A stretch of DNA of 64,000 bases, taken from positions 83,152-147,151 of the forward strand of contig CAZMID010000001.1 of NCBI GenBank assembly GCA_964566255.1. The letters run 5' to 3'. The position numbers and the translations under genes were made by a program. This document shows, piece by piece, positions 15,178 to 44,426 of the stretch (positions within the stretch are counted from its first letter, which is position 1; the number at the start of each line of letters is the position of its first letter). This stretch comes from an uncultured Planctomycetia bacterium (lineage in GTDB: Bacteria > Omnitrophota > Gorgyraeia > Gorgyraeales > Gorgyraeaceae). The notes beneath the pieces are model-generated. The model did not search any database. It worked only from the letters and a program-made list of their open reading frames with translations, and had not been told where the DNA came from.

Positions 15178-15695
15178 TCCTTCTTCCTTCCGACCCTTCT
15201 CATAACTGCTAAAACACCTATTGCAGCTGTAAACAATATGGTCGCCTCTCCTAATGTATCATATGCCCTATAATCTAAAACAACAGATGCAACTAAATTA
15301 GCTGAACCCGTCTTATCAAGGCCGTGGCTTAAAAAGTTCTGTGCTACTCTCATTATCGGCTCTCCAAATTGAGGCAGATCCTTCATGCAAAAATATCCAA
15401 AACCTAAAAATATAGCAAGGAATAAAAACGTTATAAACGTATTAAAAAACCATCTTCCGCTCGTAGAAAACGGTAGATCCCTTCTGATAGTAGCCCTTAT
15501 CAATATTATCACGCATAATATTTCGACCACGAGCTGAGCAATTGCTAAATCAGGTGCCTTGAGGATCAAAAACGCAAGTGATAGCCCAAGACCGGCTGTA
15601 CCCACTGCTATAACCGAGGAAAGTAGATCCTTTGATGCCACTGCGATTATTGCGCCTATAATTATAAATACTAGGAGTATCTGTAGTTCAAGCAT
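15174..15695 (-). CDS. Mrp-associated small membrane subunit (MbhD/E-like, DUF4040-type)
   Basis: 173 aa polytopic protein between the MrpA-like and MrpB-like genes. Confidence 0.45.
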   Translation of the reverse strand: MLELQILLVFIIIGAIIAVASKDLLSSVIAVGTAGLGLSLAFLILKAPDLAIAQLVVEILCVIILIRATIRRDLPFSTSGRWFFNTFITFLFLAIFLGFGYFCMKDLPQFGEPIMRVAQNFLSHGLDKTGSANLVASVVLDYRAYDTLGEATILFTAAIGVLAVMRRVGRKKD

Positions 15696-15702
15696 GCTTC
15701 AA

Positions 15703-18653: not shown

Positions 18654-18657
18654 AATA

Positions 18658-19092
18658 TTATTGATCTCTCCTCAAAGGAAAATTACCTTCAGGCCAATCG
18701 TCTTTTAAAAGTAAATGCTTTGGATTTGGGTGGCCTCTAAATTTTACACCCAGAAGTTCGCGTATCTCCATTTCTATCCATTCTGCGCATTTCATTATAG
18801 AAGTAAGGCTATCTATTTCAAGGTTTGATTTGTCCAGAATAACCTTTAATGTAACTATAAGTCCGATATCATCTATTGAAAAGTGATAAAGTATCTCAAC
18901 TGCTTCTCTTGTATCCACTCCGGATGCTATTGAAAATCGTGCCTTTCTTTCATTAAAAAGATATCTCACTATTTTAGGAAGTATTTCTTTCTTAATCGTA
19001 ACATAAACCCTTCTTTTGGATTTATCTATAAGTTCCAGCATGTCTTTGCCGGCACGGACTTTTATATTTTCTATTATCTCTCGCCTCTTCAT
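18658..19092 (-). CDS. NuoC-like hydrogenase subunit (MbhK-like)
   Basis: 144 aa; lies between the large and small subunits as in Mbh/Ech operons. Confidence 0.55.
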   Translation of the reverse strand: MKRREIIENIKVRAGKDMLELIDKSKRRVYVTIKKEILPKIVRYLFNERKARFSIASGVDTREAVEILYHFSIDDIGLIVTLKVILDKSNLEIDSLTSIMKCAEWIEMEIRELLGVKFRGHPNPKHLLLKDDWPEGNFPLRRDQ

Positions 19093-19514
19093 TTATTCCC
19101 TCTTAATTTACCAATCAACTTCACTATACCTAGTATCATTGCCTCTGGTTTTGGCGGGCAACCTGGTATATAAACATTTACCGGAAGAATAGAATCTACA
19201 GGATTTGGCGTATTTGGTCCATTTGCAAACATACCCTGACCACAAGAGCACGCTCCTATCGCAATAACAACGCATGGCTTTGGGGCCTGATCATAGATAG
19301 CCTTTACCCTAGGTATTGTCTTAAGGTTTAAGGCACCTGTTACAAGTATTGCATCAGCATGCTTTATGCTACCAACAAGCATTATCCCGAATCTTTCCAC
19401 GTCGAATCTCGGAGTCAGAAGATCCAGGATTTCTATATCGCAATTATTGCAACTACCTGTTGAAAGGTGGTAAACCCAGATAGATTTTGTTAATGCTTTT
19501 AATTTTAAGCTCAT
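19089..19514 (-). CDS. [NiFe]-hydrogenase small subunit (NuoB-like, MbhJ-type)
   Basis: 141 aa; CNNCDIE ... GACSCGQG ... GCPPKPE are the cysteines of the proximal [4Fe-4S] cluster. Confidence 0.8.
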   Translation of the reverse strand: MSLKLKALTKSIWVYHLSTGSCNNCDIEILDLLTPRFDVERFGIMLVGSIKHADAILVTGALNLKTIPRVKAIYDQAPKPCVVIAIGACSCGQGMFANGPNTPNPVDSILPVNVYIPGCPPKPEAMILGIVKLIGKLRGNK

Positions 19515-20416
19515 TACATGCCTCGCACTGCAAGAAATACTGCAATTACAGCTATTAAAGTCATTTTTCCCCAGAAAAATCTCATTGCCTGATCAACCCT
19601 AACCCTGGGATTCGTATTCCTCATTAAAATTATTACAACTAAAAGTACTACGTATTTCCATATACTAAATCCGCCCCAAAATACCGTAATTAAAAATAGA
19701 GGAAGTGCTACCATCATCATTGTCTTTGTAAGTTTAAATATAGCAAGTAAAATCCCTGAATACTCTATATGAGTACCTGCCATTATCTCTGTCTCTGCCT
19801 CTCCTGCATCAAAAGGTACAAGCCCTAACTTTGCCTGCATACAGAATATTGCAACTAATATGGAAAGAATTCCTGACAAACTTGATATAAATGCCCCATT
19901 CATTGCCTGATAAGTAAGTAATTCATGCAACCTTAAAAGTCCATTACTTTTTATAATAGGTACAGTTAATACTAGAATAAAAGGTAATTCATAAGAAAGC
20001 ATAAGCTTTATCTCTCTTGATAGGCCAACCGATGCCAAAGGATTACCGCTGGCTGATGCACCTAACATAAGAGAAATCGCTGGTAATGTCAATAAATACA
20101 AAATAACTATTAAATCTCCCCTAAAACCACTTGGCATTACCTCTATATTAGATAGCCACAGAAAAGTTGAAGCCAATATTACAGCACTAAGTCCTATAAA
20201 AGGCGAAGCCATAAAAAGTGTCTTTGAGGAAGACTTTGGAATAGTGATTTCCTTTATGCTTAATTTTACTAAATCTATAAGAGGCTGGTACCAAGGTGGA
20301 CCTACCCTCCACTGTACGCGGGCCGTAACCTTACGATCTATCCAGCTTGCGACCAAACCGACAGCTGCTGTAAAAATAAATCCAGGAAATATTAAAAAAT
20401 TAAATAATAGTTTCAT
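19514..20416 (-). CDS. NuoH-like membrane subunit (MbhM/HycD-type)
   Basis: 300 aa with about 8 TM helices; position matches Mbh/Ech operons. Confidence 0.7.
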   Translation of the reverse strand: MKLLFNFLIFPGFIFTAAVGLVASWIDRKVTARVQWRVGPPWYQPLIDLVKLSIKEITIPKSSSKTLFMASPFIGLSAVILASTFLWLSNIEVMPSGFRGDLIVILYLLTLPAISLMLGASASGNPLASVGLSREIKLMLSYELPFILVLTVPIIKSNGLLRLHELLTYQAMNGAFISSLSGILSILVAIFCMQAKLGLVPFDAGEAETEIMAGTHIEYSGILLAIFKLTKTMMMVALPLFLITVFWGGFSIWKYVVLLVVIILMRNTNPRVRVDQAMRFFWGKMTLIAVIAVFLAVRGM

Positions 20417-20898
20417 TATGGGTGATATTTCTTCCAGGGTTTTGCATGGACTGCAATATTTTTACCTATTAAAAATATATCGTCCTTTTCTGATTCATCT
20501 ACTTCGGTAAATTTCACTGCATCTTTTATGGAACAACTCTTTACACATACAGGTACTTCTTTTTTACTCCTATCTATACAAACATCGCACTGGGAAGTAA
20601 TATAAGGTACTGTCTCAATAGGGATTGTACCAAAAGGGCACGACATACTACAAGATTTACAAGATATACATCTCATTGTATAACGCTTTATCGTACCATC
20701 ATCTTGTTTTTCCAGTGCGTCTTTAGGACAACTCGTTACACAGGGTGCCTCTTCGCACTTCCTGCAGATATGTAAAAATTGTGCTATTTCTCTTAAGCGG
20801 GTTATGCCTGAATTCCCAGGACGGTAATAATAACTGCAATCTGCCTTTACCTCTTCACAGCTATATAATTTTTCAAGATCTATAAATAAACGTTTCAT
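20416..20898 (-). CDS. 4Fe-4S poly-ferredoxin (HycB-like electron-transfer subunit)
   Basis: 160 aa with four CxxC-type cysteine clusters (CRKCEEAPCVTSCP, CISCKSCSMSCP, CDVCIDR ... CVKSC). Confidence 0.65.
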   Translation of the reverse strand: MKRLFIDLEKLYSCEEVKADCSYYYRPGNSGITRLREIAQFLHICRKCEEAPCVTSCPKDALEKQDDGTIKRYTMRCISCKSCSMSCPFGTIPIETVPYITSQCDVCIDRSKKEVPVCVKSCSIKDAVKFTEVDESEKDDIFLIGKNIAVHAKPWKKYHP

Positions 20899-20900
20899 AC

Positions 20901-21725
20901 CTAGTCCCAGATTTCGTGAATGTTATTTATTTTATCATACCTAAATACAGGACCGTCTTTACATACATAAAAATTTCCGATCCTACAGTGGCCACATTTA
21001 CCTACGCCGCAACTCATATTCTTTTCCATTGATAGATAGATTTGATTTTCTTTATATCCTACCTCAAGTAATTTAAAGGTTGAAAATTTCATCATTATTG
21101 GCGGGCCGCATACAATTGCTACACTATTTTTTAGATGAAGGTGTAAATTATCAAGTGTTGTGGTCACAAGACCAACTTTTCCTTTCCAACTATCATCTTT
21201 TTTATCAACTGTAACCCTAAAATCTACCTTTTTATCTATCTTCTGCCATTTATCTAAAACACTATCCTTAAATATAATATCTGATGGTGTCTTCGAGCCA
21301 CAGCAGAATAATATACTTTTATATTTATCTATATCGTGAACTAATGCCAAAAATAACGCCCTTAATGGTGCGAGCCCTACTCCTCCTCCTACAAGTAAAA
21401 TCTCTTTACCTTCAAACTCAGTTAGAGGATATTCATTACCATATGGGCCTCTTAATCCTACTATATCTCCTTTTTTTAAATCATGTATTCTAGAGGTAAC
21501 TAAACCTACTTTCATGATGCTGATTTCTATTTTACTCTTTTGATAAGGAGAAGATGATGGCGTAAATGGCGCTTCTCCTACACCAGGAATAGTCATTTCC
21601 ATAAACTGGCCTGCCTTAAAATGCATTGGCTTATCAGGTTTAAGAGAAAACGTCTTTATAGTAGGACTCTCACTGCATACATCCAGGACCTCTGCTTTTG
21701 TAGGTATATAAGGATTTTCTATCAT
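20901..21725 (-). CDS. FAD/NAD(P)-binding oxidoreductase subunit with C-terminal [2Fe-2S] (HydG/AsrB/PyrK-like)
   Basis: 274 aa; ferredoxin-reductase-type fold motifs; C-terminal CGVGKCGHCRIGNFYVC 2Fe-2S motif. Confidence 0.7.
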   Translation of the reverse strand: MIENPYIPTKAEVLDVCSESPTIKTFSLKPDKPMHFKAGQFMEMTIPGVGEAPFTPSSSPYQKSKIEISIMKVGLVTSRIHDLKKGDIVGLRGPYGNEYPLTEFEGKEILLVGGGVGLAPLRALFLALVHDIDKYKSILFCCGSKTPSDIIFKDSVLDKWQKIDKKVDFRVTVDKKDDSWKGKVGLVTTTLDNLHLHLKNSVAIVCGPPIMMKFSTFKLLEVGYKENQIYLSMEKNMSCGVGKCGHCRIGNFYVCKDGPVFRYDKINNIHEIWD

Positions 21726-22741
21726 AATTTACTAAGGACCTCATCGATGCGTATCTTGCCAGGACAGGCTTCACTGCACCTTCCGCAGCCAGTACAGCCA
21801 AATCTTCCGATCGTATCTGGGAAAAAATTAAATTTTTTATCAAAACGGTTTCTTATTCGCTCTGCTAAAAGTTTTCTTGGATTTGCATTGCCTGCAACTC
21901 TTGCGAAAGAAAGTAAAAGACAAGAATCCCACAGCCTCAACCTTTCAAACCCTCCTTCTTTAGCCTGATCCTTTAAGATAAAACAGTGACAAGCAGGACA
22001 TATTACATTACAAGCACCACACTCGACACACGTTTTGACAGTCTCTTCCCATAACTTTGAATCAAACTTCTTCTTAAAAAGGTTCTGAACTTTAGAAGCA
22101 TCTGGTATATTTTTCTTTTTTGTATGCTTTGCGATTTCTTCTTCTAATTTTTTCCTATGCGTTTCCTTTTTTTCAATATAAAGATCTGCATTCTGGAATA
22201 ATTTAAAATACTCTTTTACTATTTTTTCTCCTTTTTCTGAACCTATTTCTGCAACGTAACCACTTTCTATCTCTGAAAGATTTATATCAAACCCTTCTTT
22301 TGGATATGGCATTATACCCAAAGCTACACAAAAACAAGTATCTTTATAACAAGTGCAATCACTTGAAATTATAAGACTCTCTTCTCTTCGGGAAATATAA
22401 GATGGATCCTTAAAAGAATCTTGACTAAAGACATAATCCATCACCTTTAATGAAGCCAAATCACACGACTTGGCGCCTATTATAGCTACAGGTCTTATCT
22501 TTTTATCGGAAATCTTCTCAGAAAAGTAATCTGCTACTTTTGTCCTGGCGAGAAAATAGAAACTCTTTATAGATTGTACTGGTCTTACCTCGCCTATGAC
22601 AGCATCTTCAAGCCCTTTATCTCCAACACGTTTATACTGTAAATTATCGTCGGATTTTACAGGGGCATAAACCCTGTGTGTCTTAAAAAGGGACTTGGCG
22701 AGTCTGTCAAGATTTGGTCGATTTATAAAATACGTGTCCAA
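21722..22741 (-). CDS. Iron-sulfur subunit (HydB/AsrA-like)
   Basis: 339 aa; CVECGACNVICPACHC and CTGCGRCSEACPG motifs; 4-nt overlap with the HydG-like gene; apparent TTG start. Confidence 0.65.
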   Translation of the reverse strand: MDTYFINRPNLDRLAKSLFKTHRVYAPVKSDDNLQYKRVGDKGLEDAVIGEVRPVQSIKSFYFLARTKVADYFSEKISDKKIRPVAIIGAKSCDLASLKVMDYVFSQDSFKDPSYISRREESLIISSDCTCYKDTCFCVALGIMPYPKEGFDINLSEIESGYVAEIGSEKGEKIVKEYFKLFQNADLYIEKKETHRKKLEEEIAKHTKKKNIPDASKVQNLFKKKFDSKLWEETVKTCVECGACNVICPACHCFILKDQAKEGGFERLRLWDSCLLLSFARVAGNANPRKLLAERIRNRFDKKFNFFPDTIGRFGCTGCGRCSEACPGKIRIDEVLSKL

Positions 22742-25356: not shown

Positions 25357-26441
25357 CGCCTATACCTATAATATGCACTACATGCACCTTCACTAGAGAC
25401 CATGCATGCCCCTATAGGATTAGAAGGGGTACATTTTTTAGAAAATAACTTACAGTCAAAAGGTATCTTTATACCTTTTAAGACATCCCCGCAAATACAA
25501 CCTCTATCAGGTACTGTTTTTATAGTCGGTAAAGAAAATCCTCTTTCAGCATCAAATTTGGAATATTTCTTTTTCAAAGTGAGACCACTTTTAGGGATAT
25601 TACCTATGCCTCGCCATTCAGAATCATCTATTGAAAAAACTTCATTCATTAAATTCATGGCCTTTTTATTACCTAAAGGTTTAACTACTCTTTTATATTG
25701 ATTTTCGACCTTACTCTTTTTTAAACGAATCTGTTCTACGATCATCAAGATTCCCTGCAATACATCAAGTGGTTCAAATCCCGTTACAACACATGGAATA
25801 TTATATTTTCCGCTGACTATATTATAAGGTTTTGTACCTATAATAGTACTTACATGGGCTGGGCATAAAAATCCATCTATATTTACATTAGGATCTTTTA
25901 CCAAAACCTCCATTGCAGGTAAAATTACTTTATGTCCAGAATATAGAAAAAAATTCCTGATATTTTTCTTTTTTGCATATATCAAACTTGCGGCTATAGT
26001 AGGAGATGTGGTCTCAAACCCTACAGCAAGAAATATCACTTTTTTATCTTTGTTTTTTCTGGCAATATCTACTGCATCCAAAACTGAATATACAACTTTT
26101 ACTAAACCTCCTTTTGATTTTTCATCTATAAGACTGGAGTGAGACCCCGGTACCCTCATCATATCTCCAAAAGTCACTATAATAACTCCGGGAAGTTTAG
26201 ATAAAGCTATAGTTTTATCTATGTAGGATTTTGGAGTTACGCATACAGGACATCCTGGACCTGATAGAAGGTTTATATTTTCAGGTATTAGTTTACGGAT
26301 GCCAAATTTACAGATAGACATTGTATGTGTACCACACACCTCCATTATATTTATAGGTCCTAGACCTAAGGCCTTATCAAAAATAATCTTTGAAACTCTT
26401 TTAGCTATTTTATTATTTCTGAATTCGTCTATATACTTCAT
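25353..26441 (-). CDS. hypD: Hydrogenase maturation factor HypD
   Basis: 362 aa; GPGCPVC and FLCPAHV motifs of HypD. Confidence 0.85.
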   Translation of the reverse strand: MKYIDEFRNNKIAKRVSKIIFDKALGLGPINIMEVCGTHTMSICKFGIRKLIPENINLLSGPGCPVCVTPKSYIDKTIALSKLPGVIIVTFGDMMRVPGSHSSLIDEKSKGGLVKVVYSVLDAVDIARKNKDKKVIFLAVGFETTSPTIAASLIYAKKKNIRNFFLYSGHKVILPAMEVLVKDPNVNIDGFLCPAHVSTIIGTKPYNIVSGKYNIPCVVTGFEPLDVLQGILMIVEQIRLKKSKVENQYKRVVKPLGNKKAMNLMNEVFSIDDSEWRGIGNIPKSGLTLKKKYSKFDAERGFSLPTIKTVPDRGCICGDVLKGIKIPFDCKLFSKKCTPSNPIGACMVSSEGACSAYYRYRR

Positions 26442-26647
26442 AGGACATCCTTTAACATCTGAAGGGTCTCTTGTGCCTTTTTAGGACTTATTTTTTCTAT
26501 GGCAAAACCCGCATGGACAACTACATAATCTCCTATTTTTGGATTAGTTAAAAAATTAATGGCAATCTTGCGCTGTATATTTGCTGCAGATACTATTGCC
26601 CTATCACCTTCTATCTTTAAAATCTTCATTGGTATTCCTAAACACAT
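26438..26647 (-). CDS. hypC: Hydrogenase maturation factor HypC
   Basis: The true start is the internal MCLGIP (HypC always begins MC(L/A)(G/A)IP), preceded by a GAGGT SD; the ORF track's upstream extension is not used; 69 aa. Confidence 0.8.
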   Translation of the reverse strand: MCLGIPMKILKIEGDRAIVSAANIQRKIAINFLTNPKIGDYVVVHAGFAIEKISPKKAQETLQMLKDVL

Positions 26648-26657
26648 ATCTATTACC

Positions 26658-27761
26658 TCATCCAGCAAGGGCTGCTTGACCCAATGCAATATTACCATCG
26701 TGAAATGGAACATTTTTATGTAAATATACCTTAAAATCTTCTTTTTCTAAAAGAGGGGTTACACGATCTATCAAATATCTATTTTGAAATACCCCTCCAC
26801 TCAAAACTACCTTAGAAATCTTATATTTTTTTCTTAATAAAATGGAAAGTTCTTTTATCATATCGCAAATTGTATTATGAAATTTTAAAGATATAGTGCC
26901 TTTAGGAATTTTTCTCTTAAGGTCATTAACTACACCTTTAATAAGTTTATTATGCTTTATTACAAAAATATCTTTATTCTTCACGATATCAAAATTATAA
27001 GATTTTGTATTTTTTGCATTTGATATTACCTTTTCCAGTTCAATTGCTGCTTGAGCATCGTATTTTGCAATATTACATATGTCGAGAATAGATGATACGG
27101 CATCAAAAAGCCTTCCCACACTAGAGGTCAAAGGTGAATTTATACTTTTTTTAATAATTTGTATCAAAAATTCTGATTTTCCTCTTTCTAACTTGATGAT
27201 ATTTGGAAAGTTATCCCCGTATACACTATATAAATAACTCAACGCCATGCGATACGGCTCTTTTACTGCCATCTCTCCTCCAGGCATAGGTACATATTGT
27301 AAATGGCTAGCTCTTTTAAATCCTTTAATGCCACCTACAAAAAACTCACCTCCCCAAATATTTCCATCAAGACCGAATCCTGTTCCATCAAATGCAATAC
27401 CTATTACATCGCCTTTTATTTTATTATCTACAATTGAACTTGCTATATGAGCATGATGATGTTGAATAGATTTTAACTTAAAATTACTATTTTTTACCAA
27501 ATCATCTGCATATTTAGTAGATATGTATTCTGGGTGAAGATCGCATGCAATAATGCGTGGAGTTAACTTTAGCTTTTTCTTTAAATTCTTTATTCGCCTT
27601 TCAAAAACCCTGAAACTTTCCATATTACTTAAATCTCCATCGGGCTTTGAAAGATAAGCTATATTATTTTTAACAAAACAAAAGCTATTCTTTGATTGTG
27701 CGCCGACAGCAAAAATTTCAGCTTTTTTCCGCCGAGGAAAATTTATCGTAGTGTAATCCAT
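26658..27761 (-). CDS. hypF: Carbamoyltransferase HypF, C-terminal Kae1/YgjD-like domain only (the N-terminal acylphosphatase, Zn-finger and YrdC domains are absent)
   Basis: 367 aa; HHHAHIAS and C-terminal LSGGVFQN ... DGNIALGQA motifs of the HypF C-domain. The gene starts 6 nt after the stop of the unrelated upstream gene. Confidence 0.7.
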   Translation of the reverse strand: MDYTTINFPRRKKAEIFAVGAQSKNSFCFVKNNIAYLSKPDGDLSNMESFRVFERRIKNLKKKLKLTPRIIACDLHPEYISTKYADDLVKNSNFKLKSIQHHHAHIASSIVDNKIKGDVIGIAFDGTGFGLDGNIWGGEFFVGGIKGFKRASHLQYVPMPGGEMAVKEPYRMALSYLYSVYGDNFPNIIKLERGKSEFLIQIIKKSINSPLTSSVGRLFDAVSSILDICNIAKYDAQAAIELEKVISNAKNTKSYNFDIVKNKDIFVIKHNKLIKGVVNDLKRKIPKGTISLKFHNTICDMIKELSILLRKKYKISKVVLSGGVFQNRYLIDRVTPLLEKEDFKVYLHKNVPFHDGNIALGQAALAG

Positions 27762-27767
27762 GGTAAG

Positions 27768-28817
27768 TTATCTTAAATTATCTTTTGCTAACTGGCTGAG
27801 TCCTGGAAGTTTAGACAAGACTTTATCTGTCAAATCTTGGGAGAGCGTACCCATTCCACAACTGGGAGTAATTAAAGATTGACGTATTAATAAATCTCGG
27901 GGGATTCCTTTTTTCTCCAGTTTTTTGATTTCTGATGAAAGCTTATCAAAAAGCGACTTTTCAGTCTCCTTTAATATAGCGTTAGATGTAGGAACAATAC
28001 CCCAGGCAAAGACTCCACCTCTTTTTAAAAACTCAGTTATATCGCTAGGATACAATGAAAGTCCATCTACATAAGAATATGCATCAAAATTTATAATATC
28101 GACGTTTGATTCAGTAAAAAGCGACCAATCTGTGTTACCGCAACAGTGAATTCCACTTAACGCTCCTTCTGAATGTATCTTATCTATTATAGAATTGAGC
28201 ATCAAGATCACATCCTGCCTTTCGATATTAACAAAACTCGAACCAAAGCTCGTAAGGTATGGCTCATCTACAAATATAATGACATTTTTAGAAATATTCT
28301 TTAATTTATGTATCTGATGAGCAGCTTTTATTTCTAAAAGTTTAACAAATCCCTCTTTTAAGGTATCGTTATATATTATGGACTTTCCTTTTTCATCAAC
28401 AACGCTTAATCCAAAACTAACAGGACCTGTAACATGACCTTTTACATAATTTGGATTGAATTTTTTAGCTAGATCCAAAAATACATAAAGACCCTCTGCA
28501 AAATCCCTTGAAAGCCCAAACGATTCATAGTCTCCTGAAAGATAAGCCTCATAGATCTTACCTAACCCTTCGCTTAAATCTTTGGTAGTATCTACAAATA
28601 TCTTTCTATTTTTTTCATCTATGGTAAGTGAGGGTAGACCCTCTGCGAACTGAACATACATGTTTTCTTTAAAGCTCCTCTTTGTTAGCTGAGGCCAAAA
28701 AGGTATGTCAAATTTAGTAGAGATTAGTTCTATGGATGCCTTTAAATCAACTAAAGGCAAACTCCCTATTCCAGTTGTAAGAAACTTTTCCTTGATCTTC
28801 ATGATTTGTAAACTCAA
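27768..28817 (-). CDS. Cobalamin-independent methionine synthase (MetE) catalytic-domain-like / URO-D-superfamily protein
   Basis: 349 aa; putative zinc-ligand motifs IHCCGN and ITPSCGMG resembling the MetE C-terminal domain; its first ~70 nt overlap bioD. Confidence 0.45.
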   Translation of the reverse strand: MSLQIMKIKEKFLTTGIGSLPLVDLKASIELISTKFDIPFWPQLTKRSFKENMYVQFAEGLPSLTIDEKNRKIFVDTTKDLSEGLGKIYEAYLSGDYESFGLSRDFAEGLYVFLDLAKKFNPNYVKGHVTGPVSFGLSVVDEKGKSIIYNDTLKEGFVKLLEIKAAHQIHKLKNISKNVIIFVDEPYLTSFGSSFVNIERQDVILMLNSIIDKIHSEGALSGIHCCGNTDWSLFTESNVDIINFDAYSYVDGLSLYPSDITEFLKRGGVFAWGIVPTSNAILKETEKSLFDKLSSEIKKLEKKGIPRDLLIRQSLITPSCGMGTLSQDLTDKVLSKLPGLSQLAKDNLR

Positions 28818-29463
28818 CCTTTCTTTTAGACCTATCTTTATTATAATACATTATACCTAAAATTCCTACCCCTGAAAGCTCTCTTATTATATCAGGGTTT
28901 GTTTCTATGGAGATATCCTTTTTTATAGGCGAAGTATAATTAAAAATAATACCTTCTATACTTATGCCTTTACTCTTAAGAATCTCTACTGTCATAATGG
29001 TATGATTTATGGTTCCTAAATCTGGTCTTGCAACTATAATAACTGGAAGGTCCATCTTTAACATCATATCTGGAACATAAAGAGTCTCTTTATCTTTCTC
29101 GCATATAGGTACCATTACACCACCGATGCCTTCTACTATCATTATATTATTTGCCTTACTCAAGGTCTTAAATCTATCCCATACGATATTTAAATCTATA
29201 TCCTTCTTCTCTAATCTGCTGGCAACTAAAGGTGCAAGCGGAAGTTTTAGTGTTATAGGATTTATATAATCTATTGGGTCTTTTGAAGAGGCACTTCTTT
29301 TTAAAATTTCCGCATCTTCTGAAAACCCATTCTCAACACCTGTTGCTATAGGCTTCATTACACCTACTTTAAAAGATTTATCTAAAAATCTTTTTGCAAG
29401 ATAACTTGCAACTTCGGTTTTTCCAACGCCTGTATCAGTTCCTGTTACAAAAAAGCCCTTCAT
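28747..29463 (-). CDS. bioD: Dethiobiotin synthetase
   Basis: 238 aa; N-terminal P-loop GTDTGVGKT; later EGIGG motif. Confidence 0.85.
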   Translation of the reverse strand: MKGFFVTGTDTGVGKTEVASYLAKRFLDKSFKVGVMKPIATGVENGFSEDAEILKRSASSKDPIDYINPITLKLPLAPLVASRLEKKDIDLNIVWDRFKTLSKANNIMIVEGIGGVMVPICEKDKETLYVPDMMLKMDLPVIIVARPDLGTINHTIMTVEILKSKGISIEGIIFNYTSPIKKDISIETNPDIIRELSGVGILGIMYYNKDRSKRKVEFTNHEDQGKVSYNWNREFAFS

Positions 29464-30622
29464 TTTTTATTCTCCTAAATATTTCTATTGCATTATCTAT
29501 ATGTTCTTCAGTATGCGTTGCCATTAAAGACGTCCTTATCCTACATTTTGACTTTGCTACTGTTGGCGGCCTTATACCTGGTGCAAAAATATTATTTTTT
29601 AATAAAAATTCAGCTATCTTCATAGTATTCGAGGCCTCTCCTACCCAAACTGGAATTATTTGTGTCTTTGTATCCATAATATCAAAGCCCATTTCAATAA
29701 GTGCTTTAGAAAATTTATCGATATTAGACCAAAGCCTTTTTCTTAAAGTAGTATCTCTTTCTACTATCTCTATAGCCTTTATCGCCCCAGAAACTACTGC
29801 TGGTGGTAAACCAGTAGAATATATAAAAGAACGGGCTTTATTGCATATATAGTCTATTAAAGTCCTAGAACCGACAATATACCCTCCTAGATTCCCAAAG
29901 GCCTTACTGAACGTCCCCATTTGAATATCTACACCATCTTTTATTCCAAAATATTCACAGGTACCTTTTCCGTTCTTACCTAAAACACCTGTTGCATGGG
30001 CATCATCCACCATTAATATAGCCTCGTACTTTTTACAAATCTTTACAAGATCAGGTAAAGGTGCAATGTCACCATCCATGCTAAAAACACCATCTGTAAT
30101 AAGAAGTTTTCTTCTATAAGAAGTGTTCTTTTTAAAAATATCCTCTAATCTTTCAATATTTTTATGAGGATAAACCCTTAAATCTGCACCACTCAAGCGT
30201 ACACCATCTATGAGACTTGCATGATTTAATTTATCACAGAGTACAAGGTCTTTTTCTCCTACAATGGAGGTAATAACTCCAAGATTAGTCATATACCCTG
30301 TAGGAAAAACAATTGCAGCCTCTCTACCTTTAAATTTAGCTATTTTTTCTTCTAATTTTTCATGTAGCTCCATGTTCCCGGAAATAAGCCTAGATGCACC
30401 TGAAGATGCACCGAATTCTTTTATTGCTTGAATCTGTACCTCTTTTACTTCCGGATGATTAGCTAATCCCAAATAATTATTAGAAGAAAGTAATATTACT
30501 TCTTTACCGTCGATAACGACGGTAGGACCACTTGTAGCATCAATACGCTTCATGCTTCTAAAAAGTCCCTGCCTTTTAAATTCACTCAATTCTTTCTCTA
30601 AAACTGAATCTAAATTAAACAT
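29435..30622 (-). CDS. bioF: 8-amino-7-oxononanoate synthase
   Basis: 395 aa; class-II PLP aminotransferase fold; SNNYLGL motif; TFSKAFG PLP-lysine region. Confidence 0.85.
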   Translation of the reverse strand: MFNLDSVLEKELSEFKRQGLFRSMKRIDATSGPTVVIDGKEVILLSSNNYLGLANHPEVKEVQIQAIKEFGASSGASRLISGNMELHEKLEEKIAKFKGREAAIVFPTGYMTNLGVITSIVGEKDLVLCDKLNHASLIDGVRLSGADLRVYPHKNIERLEDIFKKNTSYRRKLLITDGVFSMDGDIAPLPDLVKICKKYEAILMVDDAHATGVLGKNGKGTCEYFGIKDGVDIQMGTFSKAFGNLGGYIVGSRTLIDYICNKARSFIYSTGLPPAVVSGAIKAIEIVERDTTLRKRLWSNIDKFSKALIEMGFDIMDTKTQIIPVWVGEASNTMKIAEFLLKNNIFAPGIRPPTVAKSKCRIRTSLMATHTEEHIDNAIEIFRRIKNEGLFCNRN

Positions 30623-31575
30623 TATTTTACTATCATTGGCATAAATTCAGTGGAACCGAATATGCCATATATCTTATGCTCCTTAAGCCATAAGGCCCTC
30701 TTCATATATCCAAGTGCTGGCCCTACAACATTGGCTGCCATAGATGTCTCATCCCCGAGTATAAATCTATGGCTTGACTTTTTACCATCAAAAGTGATAC
30801 CTGTGAGTGTCATTGTAGTAGAGACTGGTTTTTTGGCATTCCTTGTATCCATTATCCCACCCACTGAAACCTTCTTTAAAGAATCAACAACCCCTGTATT
30901 CTTAAGCAATATATCATCTGCATGTTCCATCTCGCGCAGCACAAGTTTTCCATTTCTTTTATCTAAAAACTTTTCAACTTCTTTATCTGTCATCCTTTTT
31001 GCCTTACTAACTGTATAGCCTGGCAAGTGTGCAATGTCTTCTCTTATGGTAGCCTTATATTTATCCCAATTAGAAATCCCAACACCCCACCAAATATTTA
31101 CATCCTCTACCTTTATAAATGATTGGGCTGCCAAAGTTGCTGCGGCTGATAAAAGTCCAGGTGTTGCACCGCATCCAGTTATATAAACACTTTTATTCTT
31201 CTTTAATTCATTATTCAAACTCATCATCAATCTAACAGCTCTGGTCCGTTTCAAGGTATCTGTAAAAACTCCGTTAAAACCTCCCTTTACGAAACGCCTT
31301 ATTACCGACGGTATAAAATCATTAGGAAGGTTTGGAAGCGCTACAAAAACTCCATCTAATTTATTTTTTAATTTTACGACTTCACCTATAGAATCTTTTG
31401 AGGGTTTAAGTTTTTTTAGATCTTTAGTAGTTATTCCATTTTTAGAATATAAAAATCCTCCAGAATCACAAATGCTAATTACCTTTAATTCCTTTTTCTT
31501 AGCTACAATATCTAAACATGCCTTGCCAAGTCCCCCTGCCCCCAAAACTGCTACTTTCATAACTCCCCCTTTCAT
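30622..31575 (-). CDS. NAD(P)-binding Rossmann protein (saccharopine/DAP-dehydrogenase-like); candidate bioA-replacing DAPA-forming enzyme (BioU-like hypothesis)
   Basis: 317 aa; N-terminal VAVLGAGGLGKA dinucleotide-binding motif; sits between bioB and bioF in a bio operon with no bioA. Confidence 0.4.
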   Translation of the reverse strand: MKGGVMKVAVLGAGGLGKACLDIVAKKKELKVISICDSGGFLYSKNGITTKDLKKLKPSKDSIGEVVKLKNKLDGVFVALPNLPNDFIPSVIRRFVKGGFNGVFTDTLKRTRAVRLMMSLNNELKKNKSVYITGCGATPGLLSAAATLAAQSFIKVEDVNIWWGVGISNWDKYKATIREDIAHLPGYTVSKAKRMTDKEVEKFLDKRNGKLVLREMEHADDILLKNTGVVDSLKKVSVGGIMDTRNAKKPVSTTMTLTGITFDGKKSSHRFILGDETSMAANVVGPALGYMKRALWLKEHKIYGIFGSTEFMPMIVK

Positions 31576-32552
31576 AATTCAAACCCTAAATCCTTAACCA
31601 TCTGTAAATCCTCTTTTACGGACCTTCCTTTTGTAGTAAGGTATCCTCCTATTATCATACCATTGGCACCTGCTAAAAATGCCATTGCCTGAAAATCCTT
31701 TAAACCATATTCCCTTCCTCCTGCTACCTTTATAATAGAATCAGGTAATATTAATCTAAAAACCGCTATTGTCTTTAATATTTCCATTGGAGAAAGAGAC
31801 TCTACATCTTCAAGGGGTGTACCTTTTCTAGGATTAAGTATATTTATAGGTACACACTTTATACCTAATTCTTTCAAACTAAAGATAAGTTTTAATCTTT
31901 CTTCAATATCTTCCCCTAGACCTATTATACCGCCACAGCAGGCATCCAAACCTACATCCTTTAACATGCCCACCATATCTAAGCGATTCTTATAAGAGTG
32001 GGTCTTACATATATCTTTATAAAAATCTTTGGAAGTTTCCAGATTATGATTATATCTTGTAACACCTAATTGCTTTAACTCTTTTATCATAGCTATCTCT
32101 AGAATCCCAAGTGAACAATCTATCTTTATACCAACTTCCTTATTTATTTTTACTATTGCCTTTTTAATCTTATCAAATTCTTCACTGTTAGGTCCTGGGC
32201 CACTAATTACAATGCAAAAATTAGTAGCACCTGCTCTCTTTGCCTCTCTAGCAGCAGAGACTATCTTTTCAATACTCAAAAGTGGGTAAGTCTCACAATT
32301 TGTCTTATACCTTGAAGATTGTGCGCAAAATTTACAATCCTCTGAACAAAGTCCACTTTTTGCATTTACTAAAGAACATAAATCTATCTTATTCCCGCAA
32401 AATTTTCGTCTTACAGCATCTGCTGTATGCATAAGAAGAGGGACATCATCCCTTTCTAAAGTCAAGAGGACTCTTGCATCTTTAAAGCTTAAACTCTTAC
32501 CATCCAACACGCCATCTAAGATACCTTTAATCATACGTAGTATTTTACCCAA
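31572..32552 (-). CDS. bioB: Biotin synthase (radical SAM)
   Basis: 326 aa; CSEDCKFCAQS radical-SAM CxxxCxxC motif. The annotated start is a TTG at 32552; an alternative ATG at 32534 would make the mRNA near-leaderless. Confidence 0.85.
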   Translation of the reverse strand: MGKILRMIKGILDGVLDGKSLSFKDARVLLTLERDDVPLLMHTADAVRRKFCGNKIDLCSLVNAKSGLCSEDCKFCAQSSRYKTNCETYPLLSIEKIVSAAREAKRAGATNFCIVISGPGPNSEEFDKIKKAIVKINKEVGIKIDCSLGILEIAMIKELKQLGVTRYNHNLETSKDFYKDICKTHSYKNRLDMVGMLKDVGLDACCGGIIGLGEDIEERLKLIFSLKELGIKCVPINILNPRKGTPLEDVESLSPMEILKTIAVFRLILPDSIIKVAGGREYGLKDFQAMAFLAGANGMIIGGYLTTKGRSVKEDLQMVKDLGFEL

Positions 32553-32562
32553 TATATCTTGA

Positions 32563-32594
32563 TTGTCAACCTAACCCTAAAACTAGGTTAACAA
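32563..32594. promoter_or_regulatory. BirA-operator-like inverted repeat TGTCAACC-N14-GGTTAACA overlapping the putative bioB -35 element
   Basis: Half-sites at 32564-32571 and 32586-32593 match the bacterial BirA box consensus TGTAAACC-N14/15-GGTTTACA. The reverse complement of 32565-32570 is TTGACA, and a TAAAAT (reverse complement of 32542-32547) lies 17 nt downstream. Confidence 0.55.
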
Positions 32595-32596
32595 TA

Positions 32597-33130
32597 TTAT
32601 ATCATTAGGATTTTAGTAATTAAGAGGGAGATTTTTAAAGTTTTGGATTTTTTCTTTTTGGGAATCAAACTAAATCTATTTACTTTTATTAATTGGTGGG
32701 ATTTTTCTAATTGGTAGATAAAATCCATCAATAACGACATCTCTGATTCTGCTTCTATAGTCACTTTATATTCAATATATAAACCTTTTTCTTCCATTGG
32801 AAGTGGTTTTATGTTTTTAATCAAAACAGATGTTTTGCGTCCAAGTTTTTCTATCTCACTCGATAGACTTGCTATCTCTTCTTCGTCTGAGGCAACCTTT
32901 TTTAAGCCTTGTATAATTTTTTCGTATTTATCTCGTATCGAATCCTTCTCATTCCATATAAACATAGAACGCTCTAGCTTCTTCTCATAGGTGGATATCT
33001 CTTTATTCAAATTATCTAAGATCCTCATTGCTGGAGAAATCATAACCTTATCAATAAAAAGAGAAGAGATAACTATAACTGATATATATACTACATATTT
33101 TTCACGTTGTGATAACTTTGAGAAAAACAT
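32597..33130 (-). CDS. PilO/GspM-like pilus assembly protein
   Basis: 177 aa; N-terminal TM helix then a coiled-coil; located after a PilMN fusion gene. Confidence 0.5.
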   Translation of the reverse strand: MFFSKLSQREKYVVYISVIVISSLFIDKVMISPAMRILDNLNKEISTYEKKLERSMFIWNEKDSIRDKYEKIIQGLKKVASDEEEIASLSSEIEKLGRKTSVLIKNIKPLPMEEKGLYIEYKVTIEAESEMSLLMDFIYQLEKSHQLIKVNRFSLIPKKKKSKTLKISLLITKILMI

Positions 33131-33131
33131 T

Positions 33132-34616
33132 TTAATACTCCCTCAATAATCTTTGTAAGGCTGCACTTAAGGGACAAATTATTTCAAACTCTGCTGTCTC
33201 CTCGCCCTTTACTATGTTTTTAGAGACATATTTTGTCTTAACATTCTCAAAATATTCCGATTTTTCCAATTCATTTACAAATTTAAATACTTCAGACATT
33301 ACGCTGGAAGAACCTCGTAAAGTTAGGATATGTTTTCCATCAAAACTGACAGATAATAGATACATATCTGGAGAAATCACGTTATATGCTTCATAAAGAA
33401 TATTAAGCACAGATCCTTTTGCATCTGAACGAGATTTTACTATTTCCATTTTCTCCTTCATAAGACCTAGATCATCTGCTTCGCCTTTTATCGAAGCTAT
33501 CTTATTCTTTAATTGAGTTAAATAACGTTCCCTACTGTAGAATTTTTCCAGGAAAACACTGGATGTAGCTATTAAAATCAATGCCAGAAGTATACCCAAA
33601 AGATATAAATCCTTTGCCCTCTTCTTCATAGTCCTTTCTAGTTTAATCTCATGAGGAAGAAGATTAATATGTTCTTTTCCGTATATAAAAGCTAATCCTA
33701 TGAGGCTAGAAAGGGATATATCCTTTAAGTCTCCTCCGTATAGATCAAGCGCCTCTTTAGTCACGGGAATATTCTTAAATTGAGGGGTGATTTCTACGGG
33801 CAAATTGAAACTTTCTCTTAAAAGATTATCATTAAGTTTTGCAGTAACTCTTTCTGAACCACCAATAACAATCTTAGATATATCTTTATTTACCATCTCA
33901 TTTTGATAGGCATAAATAGAACGGTTTATCTCTTCTATTAATTCCTTTTGCCATTTATCCATATCTTCTACAGATTGAGAAAACCCCAAGGAGATATTCC
34001 TATCGAATATTATTTTATTATTCAATATGGCTATAAAATTACTTTCGGTATTATCCACATCTACAAGGAGGTATGGCTCATCTTCAACTTTTTTTTCTTG
34101 ATAACTTAATCTGCACCAGTTTAGCGTACCCTCGGAACTCAAACCTATCCTTGCAGGCTTAAGCCCAGCTTTTTCAAGAACCCTGAAATATCTATTTACG
34201 ATATCGATATGAACAATAACAAGCATAACTCTGCTGTATCCGTCAGGGCTTGTATACACAATCTGATAATCGCTAACTATCTCATTTGTAGAATAAGGAG
34301 TCTGTTTTCCTATCTGTAGTTCTACCATATCCTTTATTTCTTCAGAATCTAAGGAAGGGAATTCAGGATTCCTGATAGTAGCAAATTGTGTTGGCATAGA
34401 TATAATAAGATGATCCGGATCTATCTTAAACTGCTTAGATAGACCCGTTATCATCTTAATAAGTTCATTCTCAGAAATACCATTGATTTTTTTTACTACG
34501 CTTCGAAAGATCTTTTTTTCTCTAGGAGAGGGTCTGAGCTGCACCATCTTCAGGAAATTTTCATCCATTTCTAAAACAGTTATAATTTTATCTTTTCCTG
34601 TAAATGGTAGTTTCAT
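33132..34616 (-). CDS. PilM-PilN fusion (actin-like ATPase domain + TM + PilN domain; GspL-like)
   Basis: 494 aa; actin-like N-terminal domain; TM helix LYLLGILLALILIATSSVFL preceded by an INLLPHEIK-type PilN motif. Confidence 0.65.
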   Translation of the reverse strand: MKLPFTGKDKIITVLEMDENFLKMVQLRPSPREKKIFRSVVKKINGISENELIKMITGLSKQFKIDPDHLIISMPTQFATIRNPEFPSLDSEEIKDMVELQIGKQTPYSTNEIVSDYQIVYTSPDGYSRVMLVIVHIDIVNRYFRVLEKAGLKPARIGLSSEGTLNWCRLSYQEKKVEDEPYLLVDVDNTESNFIAILNNKIIFDRNISLGFSQSVEDMDKWQKELIEEINRSIYAYQNEMVNKDISKIVIGGSERVTAKLNDNLLRESFNLPVEITPQFKNIPVTKEALDLYGGDLKDISLSSLIGLAFIYGKEHINLLPHEIKLERTMKKRAKDLYLLGILLALILIATSSVFLEKFYSRERYLTQLKNKIASIKGEADDLGLMKEKMEIVKSRSDAKGSVLNILYEAYNVISPDMYLLSVSFDGKHILTLRGSSSVMSEVFKFVNELEKSEYFENVKTKYVSKNIVKGEETAEFEIICPLSAALQRLLREY

Positions 34617-37111: not shown

Positions 37112-38335
37112 TTATCTTACTGCCAAATTTATCTCAAAAATAGGCAGAAGCATCGCAAATACAATAAATCCAACAATCAGACCCATTACCAAAATTATAG
37201 CTGGCTCCAATAAAGAAGTGATTATTTTTATCATCTTACGTACTTCTCGCTCATAAGAATGGGCAACCTCTAATAAAACCCCTTCTAAATTCCCTCCTTT
37301 TTCGCCTACTGCAATCATATTGACCATAAAAGGAGGAAAATAACTAGAACTCTCAATGCTTTTTGCCAAAGGTGCACCATCGACAATAGATTTTTCAACC
37401 TTCTCGAGTGCCCTTTTAAAGATTTGATTATCCAATGTCAATATAGCAATGCGAATGGCCTGGATAACTGGTATACTTGCTCCAAGAAGTACGCCAAAAG
37501 ATCTGGCAAATCTTGCCAGGCTCGCTTTTTTAATCATAACTCCAAATACAGGTATTTTTAATCTTAACTTATCGAGAACTATTTTTTCCTTATCACTTAT
37601 ACCTCTTCTTTTAAACATAAAAAACATGCCTGACAAGATTATTACCAGCCAATACCAGTAATTCTTCATCTTAGTACCTATTGAAATCATCACCTTCGTT
37701 ACAAATGGTAAGGCCTGTTGAGACTCTTCAAATAAAACTGTCAATCGAGGTACAGCAAAAGTAATAAGGACAATTATGGTAATTATACCGACGATAACTA
37801 TAAAAATAGGGTATGCCAAGGCTGAAGTAACAGTGGAACGCATCTCTTCCTCTTCTTCCCTAAACTTATCGAGTCTAATAAGACTATTTTCTAATACACC
37901 ACCAAATTCACCTGCGCGGACCATATTAATATATAAGGGGGAGAAAACCTTTGGATATTTATTCAATGAATCAGAAAGACTTTTTCCATCTTTTAATTCT
38001 GCATATACATCAGATAATATATCCTTCATATGTTTATTTTCGGTCTGCCTAAGAAGAATACCAATGGACTCCAATAACGAAACCTTAGATCTAACTAAAC
38101 TGGTAAGCTGTTGAGTAAATAAAGTTACATCTATAGGGCGAATTCTACTTGAAAATTTAAAACTAGAATGGGGGTTTTTTGTTTTCGATCTTCCTTTCGT
38201 TTCTTCTTTGACCTGTATAGGGACATAACCCTTTCCTATTAACTGACTAATAGCCTTGTCTCTGGTCTCTGCATCAATGGTTCCTTCTATAATCTTACCA
38301 GGACCTTTTTTTGCTTTATAAATAAATCTTGGCAT
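37112..38335 (-). CDS. gspF: Type II secretion / type IV pilus platform protein GspF/PilC
   Basis: 407 aa; two GspF repeats with 3 TM helices. Confidence 0.8.
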   Translation of the reverse strand: MPRFIYKAKKGPGKIIEGTIDAETRDKAISQLIGKGYVPIQVKEETKGRSKTKNPHSSFKFSSRIRPIDVTLFTQQLTSLVRSKVSLLESIGILLRQTENKHMKDILSDVYAELKDGKSLSDSLNKYPKVFSPLYINMVRAGEFGGVLENSLIRLDKFREEEEEMRSTVTSALAYPIFIVIVGIITIIVLITFAVPRLTVLFEESQQALPFVTKVMISIGTKMKNYWYWLVIILSGMFFMFKRRGISDKEKIVLDKLRLKIPVFGVMIKKASLARFARSFGVLLGASIPVIQAIRIAILTLDNQIFKRALEKVEKSIVDGAPLAKSIESSSYFPPFMVNMIAVGEKGGNLEGVLLEVAHSYEREVRKMIKIITSLLEPAIILVMGLIVGFIVFAMLLPIFEINLAVR

Positions 38336-38351
38336 ATATTAAATCCTATTT

Positions 38352-38588
38352 TTAAGCTTTATCTACTAAGATCGAAAGTTCTTCATCTCTCATGCCTGCA
38401 ACGCCACTCTTTATGCGTAGATTCATTCCATCTACTTTAAGCTTTCCTTTTTTTAAAGTAGCAATGAACGGTTGATGAAAATCTAAAACCGTCATCTCTC
38501 CATCTTCGCCAGGCAATATGACACTTGAGACATTATCCTGGAATATTAAAGATGCTTCTTTTATATCTAATATAGATACCTTAAACAT
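38352..38588 (-). CDS. atpC: F1 ATP synthase epsilon subunit, N-terminal beta-sandwich domain only
   Basis: 78 aa; aligns position-by-position with the epsilon N-domain pattern (VSILDIKEASLIFQDNVSSVILPGEDGEMTVLDFHQPFIATLKKGKLKV ... ILVDKA against E. coli DVVSAE..FSG.V..V.V.GSEGELGI.PGHAPLLTAIKPG ... LADTA); the C-terminal helical hairpin is absent. Confidence 0.65.
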   Translation of the reverse strand: MFKVSILDIKEASLIFQDNVSSVILPGEDGEMTVLDFHQPFIATLKKGKLKVDGMNLRIKSGVAGMRDEELSILVDKA

Positions 38589-38597
38589 CTCGAAGTA

Positions 38598-40322
38598 TCA
38601 CTCCATCATCTGAGTTATCTTCATTACCTCAGTTGGCGTAGTTAGTCCTTGTATAATTTTATTCCATCCAGACAAGGCAAGTGATTTCATGCCGGACTTT
38701 ATTGCAGCTTGCCTTATCTTATCAGCCGAAACCCTTTCTAAAACTAATTCTTTAATTGTATTATCAAGTCTTAAGATCTCACAGACTGCTATACGCCCTC
38801 TAAAACCAGTAAAATTACATTTTTCACAACCCTTGCCTCTATAAAAAATAATATCAGCTCCTTTTATATCCTTTTTAGCAATATCTTTTCCTAAAATAGA
38901 CTGTGCTATCTGAAACTTAGCATCATTACTTATAGTCTCATCCTTTTCTTTGCAAGATGAACAAATCAACCTTACTAACCTTTGGGCAATAAAAGCCTCC
39001 ACAGAAGAAACCAATAAATAAGGCTGGACCCCTATATCTAAAAGCCTTGTCACTCCACCTGCTGCATCATTTGTATGTAATGTACTAAATATAAGATGTC
39101 CTGTTAAAGCAGCTCGTATAGTAAGTTCTGCCGTTTCAAAATCTCTTACTTCTCCTACCATCATTATGTCAGGATCATGACGCAACATACTTCTTAACCC
39201 TTCTGCAAAATCAAACTTTATCTCAGGCGCTACTTGAATCTGGCTTATACCTTCTATTTCATACTCTATAGGATCTTCTATGGTAAGGATTTTATTTTCA
39301 CTGGATTTTATTTTATTAAGGCATGTATATAACGTAGTGGTCTTACCGCTTCCTGTAGGGCCTGTTACGAATATAACGCCGTGAGGTTTTTTAATTAATT
39401 CTTCCAATATTTTTAAATCATCCTTTTCCATGCCTAATTTTTCAAGGCTAAAAAGCATCTTTGCAGGTAATATCCTTATAACAATACCTTCACCATACCT
39501 AGTAGGAATAGTAGAAATCCTCAAATCAAGTTCTTCATCGCCTACTTTTACAGTAGCACGGCCATCCTGCGGAAGACGTCTTTCTATAATATCCATCTTG
39601 GACATTATCTTTATACGAGATATTATTGCTGAGAAAAATTGCTCAATATCTTTAGGGATACTCGCATCGTACAATACTCCATCTATACGGTAACGTATAT
39701 TCATCTTGCCTCTAAAAGGTTCAATATGAATATCAGTAGCGTTTTTCTCTTTTGCATCTAAAAGAATTTGATTTACTAGATTTATAACTGAGGCGTCCTC
39801 AGTTACTTTTTCTATATCAGCTACATCTTCTTTAGCTTTATACTGTTCTTTAGACTTTCTAGGGCTTTCTGCGATAATTCTTTCTACAGTTTCAGCTCCT
39901 ACGCCGTAATATCTCCTGATGCATTCGACGATTTCTTTCTCAGTAGATAACACTTGGGTTATCTCACACCCTAAAAGCAACTTTACATCATTAAGCGGGA
40001 ATAAAGGATCAGAAGTCGCTATAGTCAGGATATTGCAGTCAAATTTTATTGGCATAATAGTATAGTGCCATGCAAATTTAGCTGGGAGCTTCTTAACAAC
40101 TGATGGATCTATCCTTATCTCCTTTAATTTCATATAAGGAATACCCAATTGTTCAGAAAGCGCCAGTAAAAGATCCTCTTCCTTTATAAGGCCCATCTTG
40201 ATTAATATTGTACCCAAGCGCTCACCAGTCTTACTTTTACGCTGTTTATCAAGCGCTTCTTTAAGTTGTTTAGAATTTATTAGATTTTTTTTAAGTAATA
40301 TCTCTCCTAATCTGATTGCCAT
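38598..40322 (-). CDS. gspE: Type II secretion / type IV pilus assembly ATPase GspE/PilB
   Basis: 574 aa; Walker A GPTGSGKTT; Asp and His boxes; tetracysteine zinc motif CSSC ... CEKC. Confidence 0.85.
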   Translation of the reverse strand: MAIRLGEILLKKNLINSKQLKEALDKQRKSKTGERLGTILIKMGLIKEEDLLLALSEQLGIPYMKLKEIRIDPSVVKKLPAKFAWHYTIMPIKFDCNILTIATSDPLFPLNDVKLLLGCEITQVLSTEKEIVECIRRYYGVGAETVERIIAESPRKSKEQYKAKEDVADIEKVTEDASVINLVNQILLDAKEKNATDIHIEPFRGKMNIRYRIDGVLYDASIPKDIEQFFSAIISRIKIMSKMDIIERRLPQDGRATVKVGDEELDLRISTIPTRYGEGIVIRILPAKMLFSLEKLGMEKDDLKILEELIKKPHGVIFVTGPTGSGKTTTLYTCLNKIKSSENKILTIEDPIEYEIEGISQIQVAPEIKFDFAEGLRSMLRHDPDIMMVGEVRDFETAELTIRAALTGHLIFSTLHTNDAAGGVTRLLDIGVQPYLLVSSVEAFIAQRLVRLICSSCKEKDETISNDAKFQIAQSILGKDIAKKDIKGADIIFYRGKGCEKCNFTGFRGRIAVCEILRLDNTIKELVLERVSADKIRQAAIKSGMKSLALSGWNKIIQGLTTPTEVMKITQMME

Positions 40323-40340
40323 AATGCTATCTCCTTGGTT

Positions 40341-44425
<4,085 letters not shown>

Positions 44426-44426
44426 A

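Follow-up and report, generated by a model that had tools for sequence, protein, structure and literature searches.

A probable BioU ortholog in the place of bioA in a biotin operon of an uncultured Omnitrophota-type bacterium

A 317-amino-acid (aa) protein encoded between bioB and bioF in a biotin operon of an uncultured Omnitrophota-type bacterium is, with a probability that we put at roughly 0.85, an ortholog of BioU (Slr0355) of Synechocystis sp. PCC 6803, performing the step taken in Escherichia coli by BioA, the conversion of 8-amino-7-oxononanoate (KAPA) to 7,8-diaminononanoate (DAPA). The gene (positions 30622 to 31575, minus strand) lies in a 64,000-nucleotide stretch of contig CAZMID010000001.1 (GenBank assembly GCA_964566255.1), which was analyzed over its whole length and is called the window here. 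The protein is homologous to BioU, shares its fold and its catalytic residues, and is encoded in an operon of bio genes with no bioA nearby. BioU has been known since 2020, is represented by crystal structures and an NCBIfam model, and is among the few known enzymes that destroy themselves to donate an atom; the window protein is therefore a further member of a known family and no new kind of system. To our knowledge, BioU has been characterized so far in one cyanobacterium only.

Sequence, fold, and catalytic residues

The strongest NCBIfam match of the 317-aa protein was NF047886, "(S)-8-amino-7-oxononanoate synthase BioU" (E = 9.4e-115, 383.1 bits; residues 8 to 317 against model positions 1 to 323), with the next family at 1.6e-5. 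A sequence search of the PDB returned chains of Synechocystis Slr0355 as its sole matches (E = 1.1e-95; query residues 6 to 316 against chain residues 21 to 342), and BLASTP against the Slr0355 residues recovered from the PDB alignment gave 48% identity over 323 columns (E = 5e-115). The likeness to Slr0355, a comparison that an earlier sequence-only reading of this DNA had proposed, thus runs end to end, with E values of ~1e-95 to 1e-115. Matches to Pfam were short (ELFV_dehydrog, 29.2 bits, residues 7 to 70; PglD_N, 24.6 bits, residues 7 to 40). Neither Pfam nor NCBIfam matched the protein to the saccharopine dehydrogenase or meso-diaminopimelate (meso-DAP) dehydrogenase families, and the open reading frame (ORF) contained no Aminotran_3 pyridoxal 5′-phosphate (PLP) domain and gave no tblastn match with E. 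coli BioA. Membership in the saccharopine dehydrogenase or Glu/Leu/Phe/Val dehydrogenase families was considered and rejected, the Pfam match being confined to 64 residues of the Rossmann region and the structural likeness being distant.

An AlphaFold model built with 40 homologs (predicted local distance difference test [pLDDT], 88.7; predicted template modeling score [pTM], 0.85) placed a strand (residues 6 to 11) and then a helix (residues 15 to 25) around the Rossmann motif. The top five Foldseek matches in the PDB were all BioU (6k36, 6k38, 6itd, 6k37, and 6ir4), with template modeling (TM) scores of 0.91 to 0.92 and root mean square deviations (rmsd) of 2.0 to 2.3 Å. A large drop in TM score followed, to ~0.59 for meso-DAP and D-amino-acid dehydrogenases; further matches were L-lysine dehydrogenase, carboxyspermidine dehydrogenase, and saccharopine dehydrogenase/reductase. 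The saccharopine/DAP-dehydrogenase-like character ascribed to the protein from its letters is borne out in this form, meso-DAP, D-amino-acid, and saccharopine enzymes being the next structural matches after BioU.

The GAGGLGKA motif reported for this ORF between bioB and bioF is real: VLGAGGLGKA spans residues 10 to 19, and the codons of its GxGGxG dinucleotide-binding motif (G12-A-G-G-L-G17; 31525 to 31542, minus strand) encode the first beta-alpha turn of the Rossmann domain, with G12, G14, and G17 invariant in alignment A1 (18 sequences). The search for a conserved catalytic lysine, likewise proposed beforehand, led to Lys109 (codon AAA, 31249 to 31251, minus strand), which aligns with Lys124 of Synechocystis BioU; His218 (codon CAT, 30922 to 30924, minus strand) aligns with His233. 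PDB entries of mutated BioU fix both equivalences: the wild-type DALKRT, which corresponds to DTLKRT in the window protein, is DALART in 6itd and 6k37 (titled K124A), and MEHADD, common to the wild type and the window protein, is MEAADD in 6k38 (titled H233A). K109 and H218 were invariant in 40 close homologs, and their equivalents were kept in all 80 of the genome loci described below. In BioU, Lys124's epsilon-amino group is donated to the product, becoming N7 of DAPA (PMC12704756, PMC12915131).

The same fold could also belong to a multi-turnover reductive aminase, which would convert KAPA to DAPA with ammonia, lysine, or some other free amine as donor or with a lysine that is re-armed. The nearest other folds (meso-DAP, D-amino-acid, and native amine dehydrogenases) are indeed multi-turnover enzymes, and the clade to which the window protein belongs is just 48% identical to the sole characterized enzyme and scores below the equivalog cut-off of its model. 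However, the sacrificial lysine and the histidine mutated in 6k38 are strictly conserved (80 of 80 loci), as the self-sacrificing mechanism predicts, and the residues examined (K109, H218, and the Rossmann motif) give no sign in the sequence of another donor. We therefore regard an aminase of this kind as improbable and favor a self-sacrificing BioU.

The bio cluster and the search for bioA

The BioU-type gene is the second of four minus-strand bio ORFs, all of which abut or overlap their neighbors. The first gene of the cluster, bioB (31572 to 32552, 326 aa), encodes a biotin synthase of the radical S-adenosylmethionine (SAM) type with Pfam Radical_SAM and BATS domains; it scored 403.8 bits against TIGR00433 (equivalog cut-off, 225) and is 36% identical to E. 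coli BioB (E = 1e-64). The BioU-type gene itself, 317 aa from its first ATG, is predicted by analogy to specify an NAD(P)-dependent, lysine-donating KAPA-to-DAPA(-carbamate) enzyme in place of bioA. It is followed by bioF (29435 to 30622, 395 aa; KAPA synthase), which would supply the substrate of the BioU-type enzyme (TIGR00858, 479.5 bits against a cut-off of 426.45; 34% identity to E. coli BioF, E = 2e-74), and by bioD (28747 to 29463, 238 aa; dethiobiotin synthetase, Pfam AAA_26), which would close the ureido ring on the BioU product (TIGR00347, 173.7 bits against a cut-off of 83.3; E = 2e-25 against E. coli BioD). That bioB, bioF, and bioD are present and contiguous, as read from the sequence at the outset, is hence confirmed by scores above all three NCBIfam equivalog cut-offs and by the tight junctions.

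At the bioB/bioU junction, ATGA, the stop codon of bioB and the first ATG of the 317-aa ORF overlap, and at the bioU/bioF junction, TAATG, one base is common to the bioU stop and the bioF start. The second in-frame ATG of the 317-aa ORF is Met6, preceded by AAAGGGGGAG, so that the protein has either 317 or 312 aa. The true start of bioB may be an ATG 18 nt downstream (32534), which gives the 320-aa call of public contigs. Given these junctions and the abutting or overlapping of all four genes, they are probably translated together, and translational coupling at both junctions would suit a reagent-like protein that is required in stoichiometric amounts. A promoter-like site, TTGACA-16 nt-TAAAAT (32542 to 32569, minus strand; 11 of 12 consensus positions, sigma-70-like), lies within the 44-nt gap upstream of bioB and is the sole consensus match of this strength within 26400 to 33400; it may serve the bio genes as a promoter of their own. 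Its −10 element ends ~8 nt before the alternative bioB ATG (32534), so that the leader would be very short or lacking.

The window holds no recognizable BioA, in agreement with the sequence-only reading. The class III aminotransferase domain Aminotran_3 was absent from window ORFs of ≥150 aa covered by a Pfam scan or a precomputed Pfam record, and E. coli BioA, run by tblastn against the window in all six frames, reached a best E value of 0.5. The positive controls in the same tblastn, E. coli BioB, BioF, and BioD, gave 1e-64, 2e-74, and 2e-25, respectively. E. coli BioC had no tblastn match in the window.

Relatives and their genomic context

When 1.84 billion cluster representatives (50% identity) were scanned exhaustively with HMMER, 68 proteins reached E ≤ 1e-3 and 13 reached E ≤ 1e-30, with about seven full length among these. 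A family so small and tightly conserved leaves little room for divergent paralogs. K109 and H218 were nearly invariant in the 18-sequence alignment, which covers the diversity of the family; the exceptions, P0127 and P0130, are full length and represent the two clusters that lie farthest out. The sacrificial Lys is replaced by Asp in P0127 (38% identity), and the His equivalent to His233 by Tyr in P0130 (31% identity); the two may be paralogs with a different, non-sacrificial chemistry.

In a scan of one genome per species, at least 549 contigs encoded a relative, and the best 80 loci (56 non-cyanobacterial and 24 cyanobacterial) were analyzed for context: ~6 kb on each side was searched by tblastn, with the window bio proteins and with BioA and BioC of E. 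coli as queries. Their hosts were Omnitrophota (some mislabeled Planctomycetia), Desantisbacteria, Schekmanbacteria, Coatesbacteria, Armatimonadota/Abditibacteriota, Sumerlaeota, Melainabacteria, Methanoperedens/Methanosarcinales, metagenome-assembled genomes (MAGs) labeled "Nanoarchaeota," and Cyanobacteria. Bio genes stood beside the homolog in 38 of the 56 non-cyanobacterial loci and in none of the 24 cyanobacterial ones; matches to BioA and to BioC numbered zero in both groups. The usual orders were bioB-bioU-bioF-bioD or bioU-bioF-bioD, with bioF divergent in some loci, and the bio-gene context spanned Omnitrophota, Desantis-, Schekman-, and Coatesbacteria, Armatimonadota/Abditibacteriota, and methane-oxidizing archaea (Methanoperedens). 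The pairing of the gene with bioF and bioD, repeated in unrelated phyla and in differing gene orders, provides the strongest evidence of function available here and outweighs adjacency in the window alone.

Six archaeal MAG loci (L024, L025, L039, L051, L072, and L078), from Methanoperedens/Methanosarcinales and Nanoarchaeota-labeled MAGs, carried BioU homologs (52 to 63% identity) inside bio clusters, some with bioF divergent from bioU-bioD. The presence of BioU homologs in archaeal bio clusters indicates that the BioU route exists in archaea too.

Several points weigh against the assignment to BioU. At 383.1 bits, the window protein falls short of the 600-bit equivalog cut-off of NF047886, which in our test set was passed by cyanobacterial proteins only (Slr0355, 646.6 bits; a Nostoc ortholog, 629.2 bits); homologs from Abditibacterium (435.9), Melainabacteria (430.9), Methanoperedens (422.5), Poribacteria (396.7), and Coatesbacteria (378.8) scored in the same range as the window protein. 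In our view, this cut-off is a cautious limit for naming and neither defines the enzyme nor reflects a biochemical feature of it. Nearly all genes of the window lie on the minus strand with tiny gaps, and with such dense co-directional packing, co-direction and adjacency within the window alone are weak evidence. A canonical bioA could sit outside the visible 64 kb of the genome, and a pimeloyl-precursor gene (bioC/H/W/I/Z type) was not found within the window. Finally, the searchable literature, where results were mostly noise or cyanobacterial, yielded no biochemical test of the non-cyanobacterial clade.

Another reading is a BioU-family paralog with a different substrate, saccharopine/DAP-dehydrogenase-like, whose position in the bio cluster would be incidental and whose genome would encode BioA elsewhere. 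GenBank names the close relatives (75 to 89% identical; Candidatus Omnitrophota MAGs) "saccharopine dehydrogenase-like oxidoreductase," a label that goes back to non-cyanobacterial scores falling under 600 bits. The same shortfall in score and the packing of the window also favor a paralog, as do bioA matches at the KEGG Orthology (KO) level in 66 of the 176 genomes of an Omnitrophota survey (see below). However, the same survey finds the full bioFADB set in no genome, the protein has no Pfam saccharopine dehydrogenase match, and the family is very compact, its Lys- or His-less members P0127 and P0130 being clearly more distant than the window protein. Above all, 38 of the 56 non-cyanobacterial loci, from many phyla and from archaea, have the gene next to bioF/bioD and in many cases bioB as well, in varied orders that include a divergent bioF. 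A paralog of other function is thus very unlikely, and the BioU-type replacement of BioA first suggested from gene order is supported by sequence, by fold (TM score, 0.91 to 0.92), by K109 and H218, and by this context.

Proposed mechanism

BioU acts in three steps, the second of which is a carboxylation of the conjugate (PMC12704756, PMC12915131, PMC7133116). By analogy with it, the window protein would carry out the same chemistry in a single turnover and would make BioA dispensable. KAPA made by BioF would be joined to the protein as a saccharopine-like protein-DAPA adduct, via Lys109 as the conserved residues and fold lead us to expect. The new N7 of the adduct would then be carboxylated, and DAPA-carbamic acid would be released by an NAD(P)+-dependent oxidation on the lysine side. 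BioD would close the ureido ring of the carbamate with ATP, giving dethiobiotin, into which BioB would insert sulfur. Since the lysine would lose its amine, each protein molecule would work once.

Implications for biotin synthesis in Omnitrophota

The Nat Chem Biol paper of Sakaki et al. 2020 reportedly may have used non-cyanobacterial operonic clusters; if such operons were already reported there, the present finding is already known. For a cyanobacterium, KofamKOALA reconstructions at the KO level have already described biotin synthesis by way of BioU. Among 176 complete Omnitrophota genomes, a 2026 preprint counted bioF in 79, bioA in 66, bioD in 74, and bioB in 98, found the full bioF/bioA/bioD/bioB set in 0 of the 176, and never mentions BioU. 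It describes the biotin pathway as "uniformly partial" and reads this as part of a host-dependent lifestyle. The gap in this pathway is probably filled by BioU for the ring-assembly stage; the counts of the survey fit BioU as a gap filler, without proving it.

A wider reading, to which we give even odds, is that KAPA is usually converted to DAPA by BioU and not by BioA, in Omnitrophota as well as in several other lineages, mostly uncultured (Desantis-, Schekman-, and Coatesbacteria, Abditibacteriota/Armatimonadota, Sumerlaeota, Melainabacteria, and Methanoperedens archaea), where, unlike in cyanobacteria, it would be built into the bio operon. If this is true, the "partial biotin pathway" of Omnitrophota, cited for host dependence, stems from BioU not having been sought. 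The 600-bit rule leaves the operonic, non-cyanobacterial clade under-annotated, and pipelines that look for bioA only score biotin synthesis as incomplete. The value of the finding is corrective: statements on a partial biotin pathway in Omnitrophota probably need revisiting, and the known mechanism of BioU is unchanged.

Other features of the window

The end of bioD is overlapped by a MetE/UroD-like ORF (27768 to 28817, minus strand; 349 aa, probably 344 aa from an MKIKEKF start). It had a weak NCBIfam match to the archaeal methionine synthase PRK00957 (1.7e-7) and no Pfam match, and PDB searches with the single sequence and with a profile found nothing; its relatives carry the source name "methionine synthase (cobalamin-independent)." Its AlphaFold model (pLDDT, 92) bore a moderate likeness to the MetE barrel and to UroD (TM score, 0.45 to 0.6), and the invariant residues H224-C225-C226 and C320 resemble, as a sequence pattern, a MetE-type zinc site. 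The gene follows bioD in 7 of the 56 non-cyanobacterial loci, all from close Omnitrophota relatives, but does not follow it in locus L009. It was not counted as part of the bio system, as it follows bioD in close relatives only, in a co-directional array; that it is a further, unrecognized component of the biotin pathway is speculative and improbable.

Next to it lies a HypF-like ORF (26658 to 27761, minus strand; 367 aa) with the Kae1-like C-terminal domains only (HypF_C and HypF_C_2). The other parts of canonical HypF (acylphosphatase, zinc-finger, and YrdC-like) are missing, and the ORF is directly upstream of hypC, hypD, and hypE. These hyp maturation genes (24.3 to 27.8 kb) accompany a membrane-bound Mbh/Mrp-type [NiFe] hydrogenase cluster (10614 to 22741, minus strand), which comprises Mrp antiporter-like subunits, MbhD/E, a NuoD-like large subunit, NuoH-like and ferredoxin subunits, a HycI protease, and an FAD/NAD-binding and Fe-S module.

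An F-type ATP synthase cluster (37112 to 48238, minus strand) is interrupted and has an unusual operon layout: a b/delta fusion, alpha, and gamma are followed by a PAS protein, a Cache/PAS/HAMP histidine kinase, beta, a type II secretion system (T2SS)/MshE ATPase, and epsilon, after which come T2SS F and pseudopilin genes. A giant ORF (50206 to 63807, minus strand; 4,533 aa) had faint Pfam matches only (Amnionless and Reelin subrepeat); very long proteins are a reported hallmark of Omnitrophota (bioRxiv 10.64898/2026.06.07.730766).

Comparison with known systems

BioA is the adenosylmethionine-8-amino-7-oxononanoate aminotransferase, a class III PLP enzyme whose amine donor is SAM or, in Bacillus, lysine. 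The window protein resembles it in its pathway step, KAPA to DAPA, and in the kind of position that it holds in a bio operon, but the two are unrelated in fold and chemistry, the window protein being an NAD(P) enzyme of the Rossmann fold that lacks a PLP domain. The meso-DAP, D-amino-acid, saccharopine, and L-lysine dehydrogenases resemble it in their N-terminal Rossmann domain and alpha/beta substrate domain (TM score, 0.56 to 0.60) and in an NAD(P)-linked C-N redox chemistry on lysine-like amines; they differ from it in sequence (11 to 18% identity) and in detail of fold (rmsd, 8 to 13 Å), and they turn over with free substrates. With the "BioU" of Ehrlichia (BioUh), it has the name alone in common: BioUh is an unrelated pimeloyl-ACP methyl ester esterase, an alpha/beta-hydrolase that takes the place of BioH and has a Ser-Asp-His triad (PMC12704756), and searches of literature and annotation can be misled by the shared name.

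The closest known system is BioU of Synechocystis sp. PCC 6803 (Slr0355; NF047886). The two proteins share length, domain order, fold (TM score, 0.92), the GxGGxG motif, and the Lys and His residues, and both belong to a biotin pathway with bioF, bioD, and bioB and with no nearby bioA. The window protein, known here from its sequence and predicted structure, differs in lacking a ~12-residue insertion after residue 68, and its host, assigned by way of the nearest homologs, is a non-photosynthetic, low-GC bacterium of the Omnitrophota type. Whereas cyanobacterial bioU stands alone in 24 of 24 loci, the window gene is embedded in a bioB-bioU-bioF-bioD operon.

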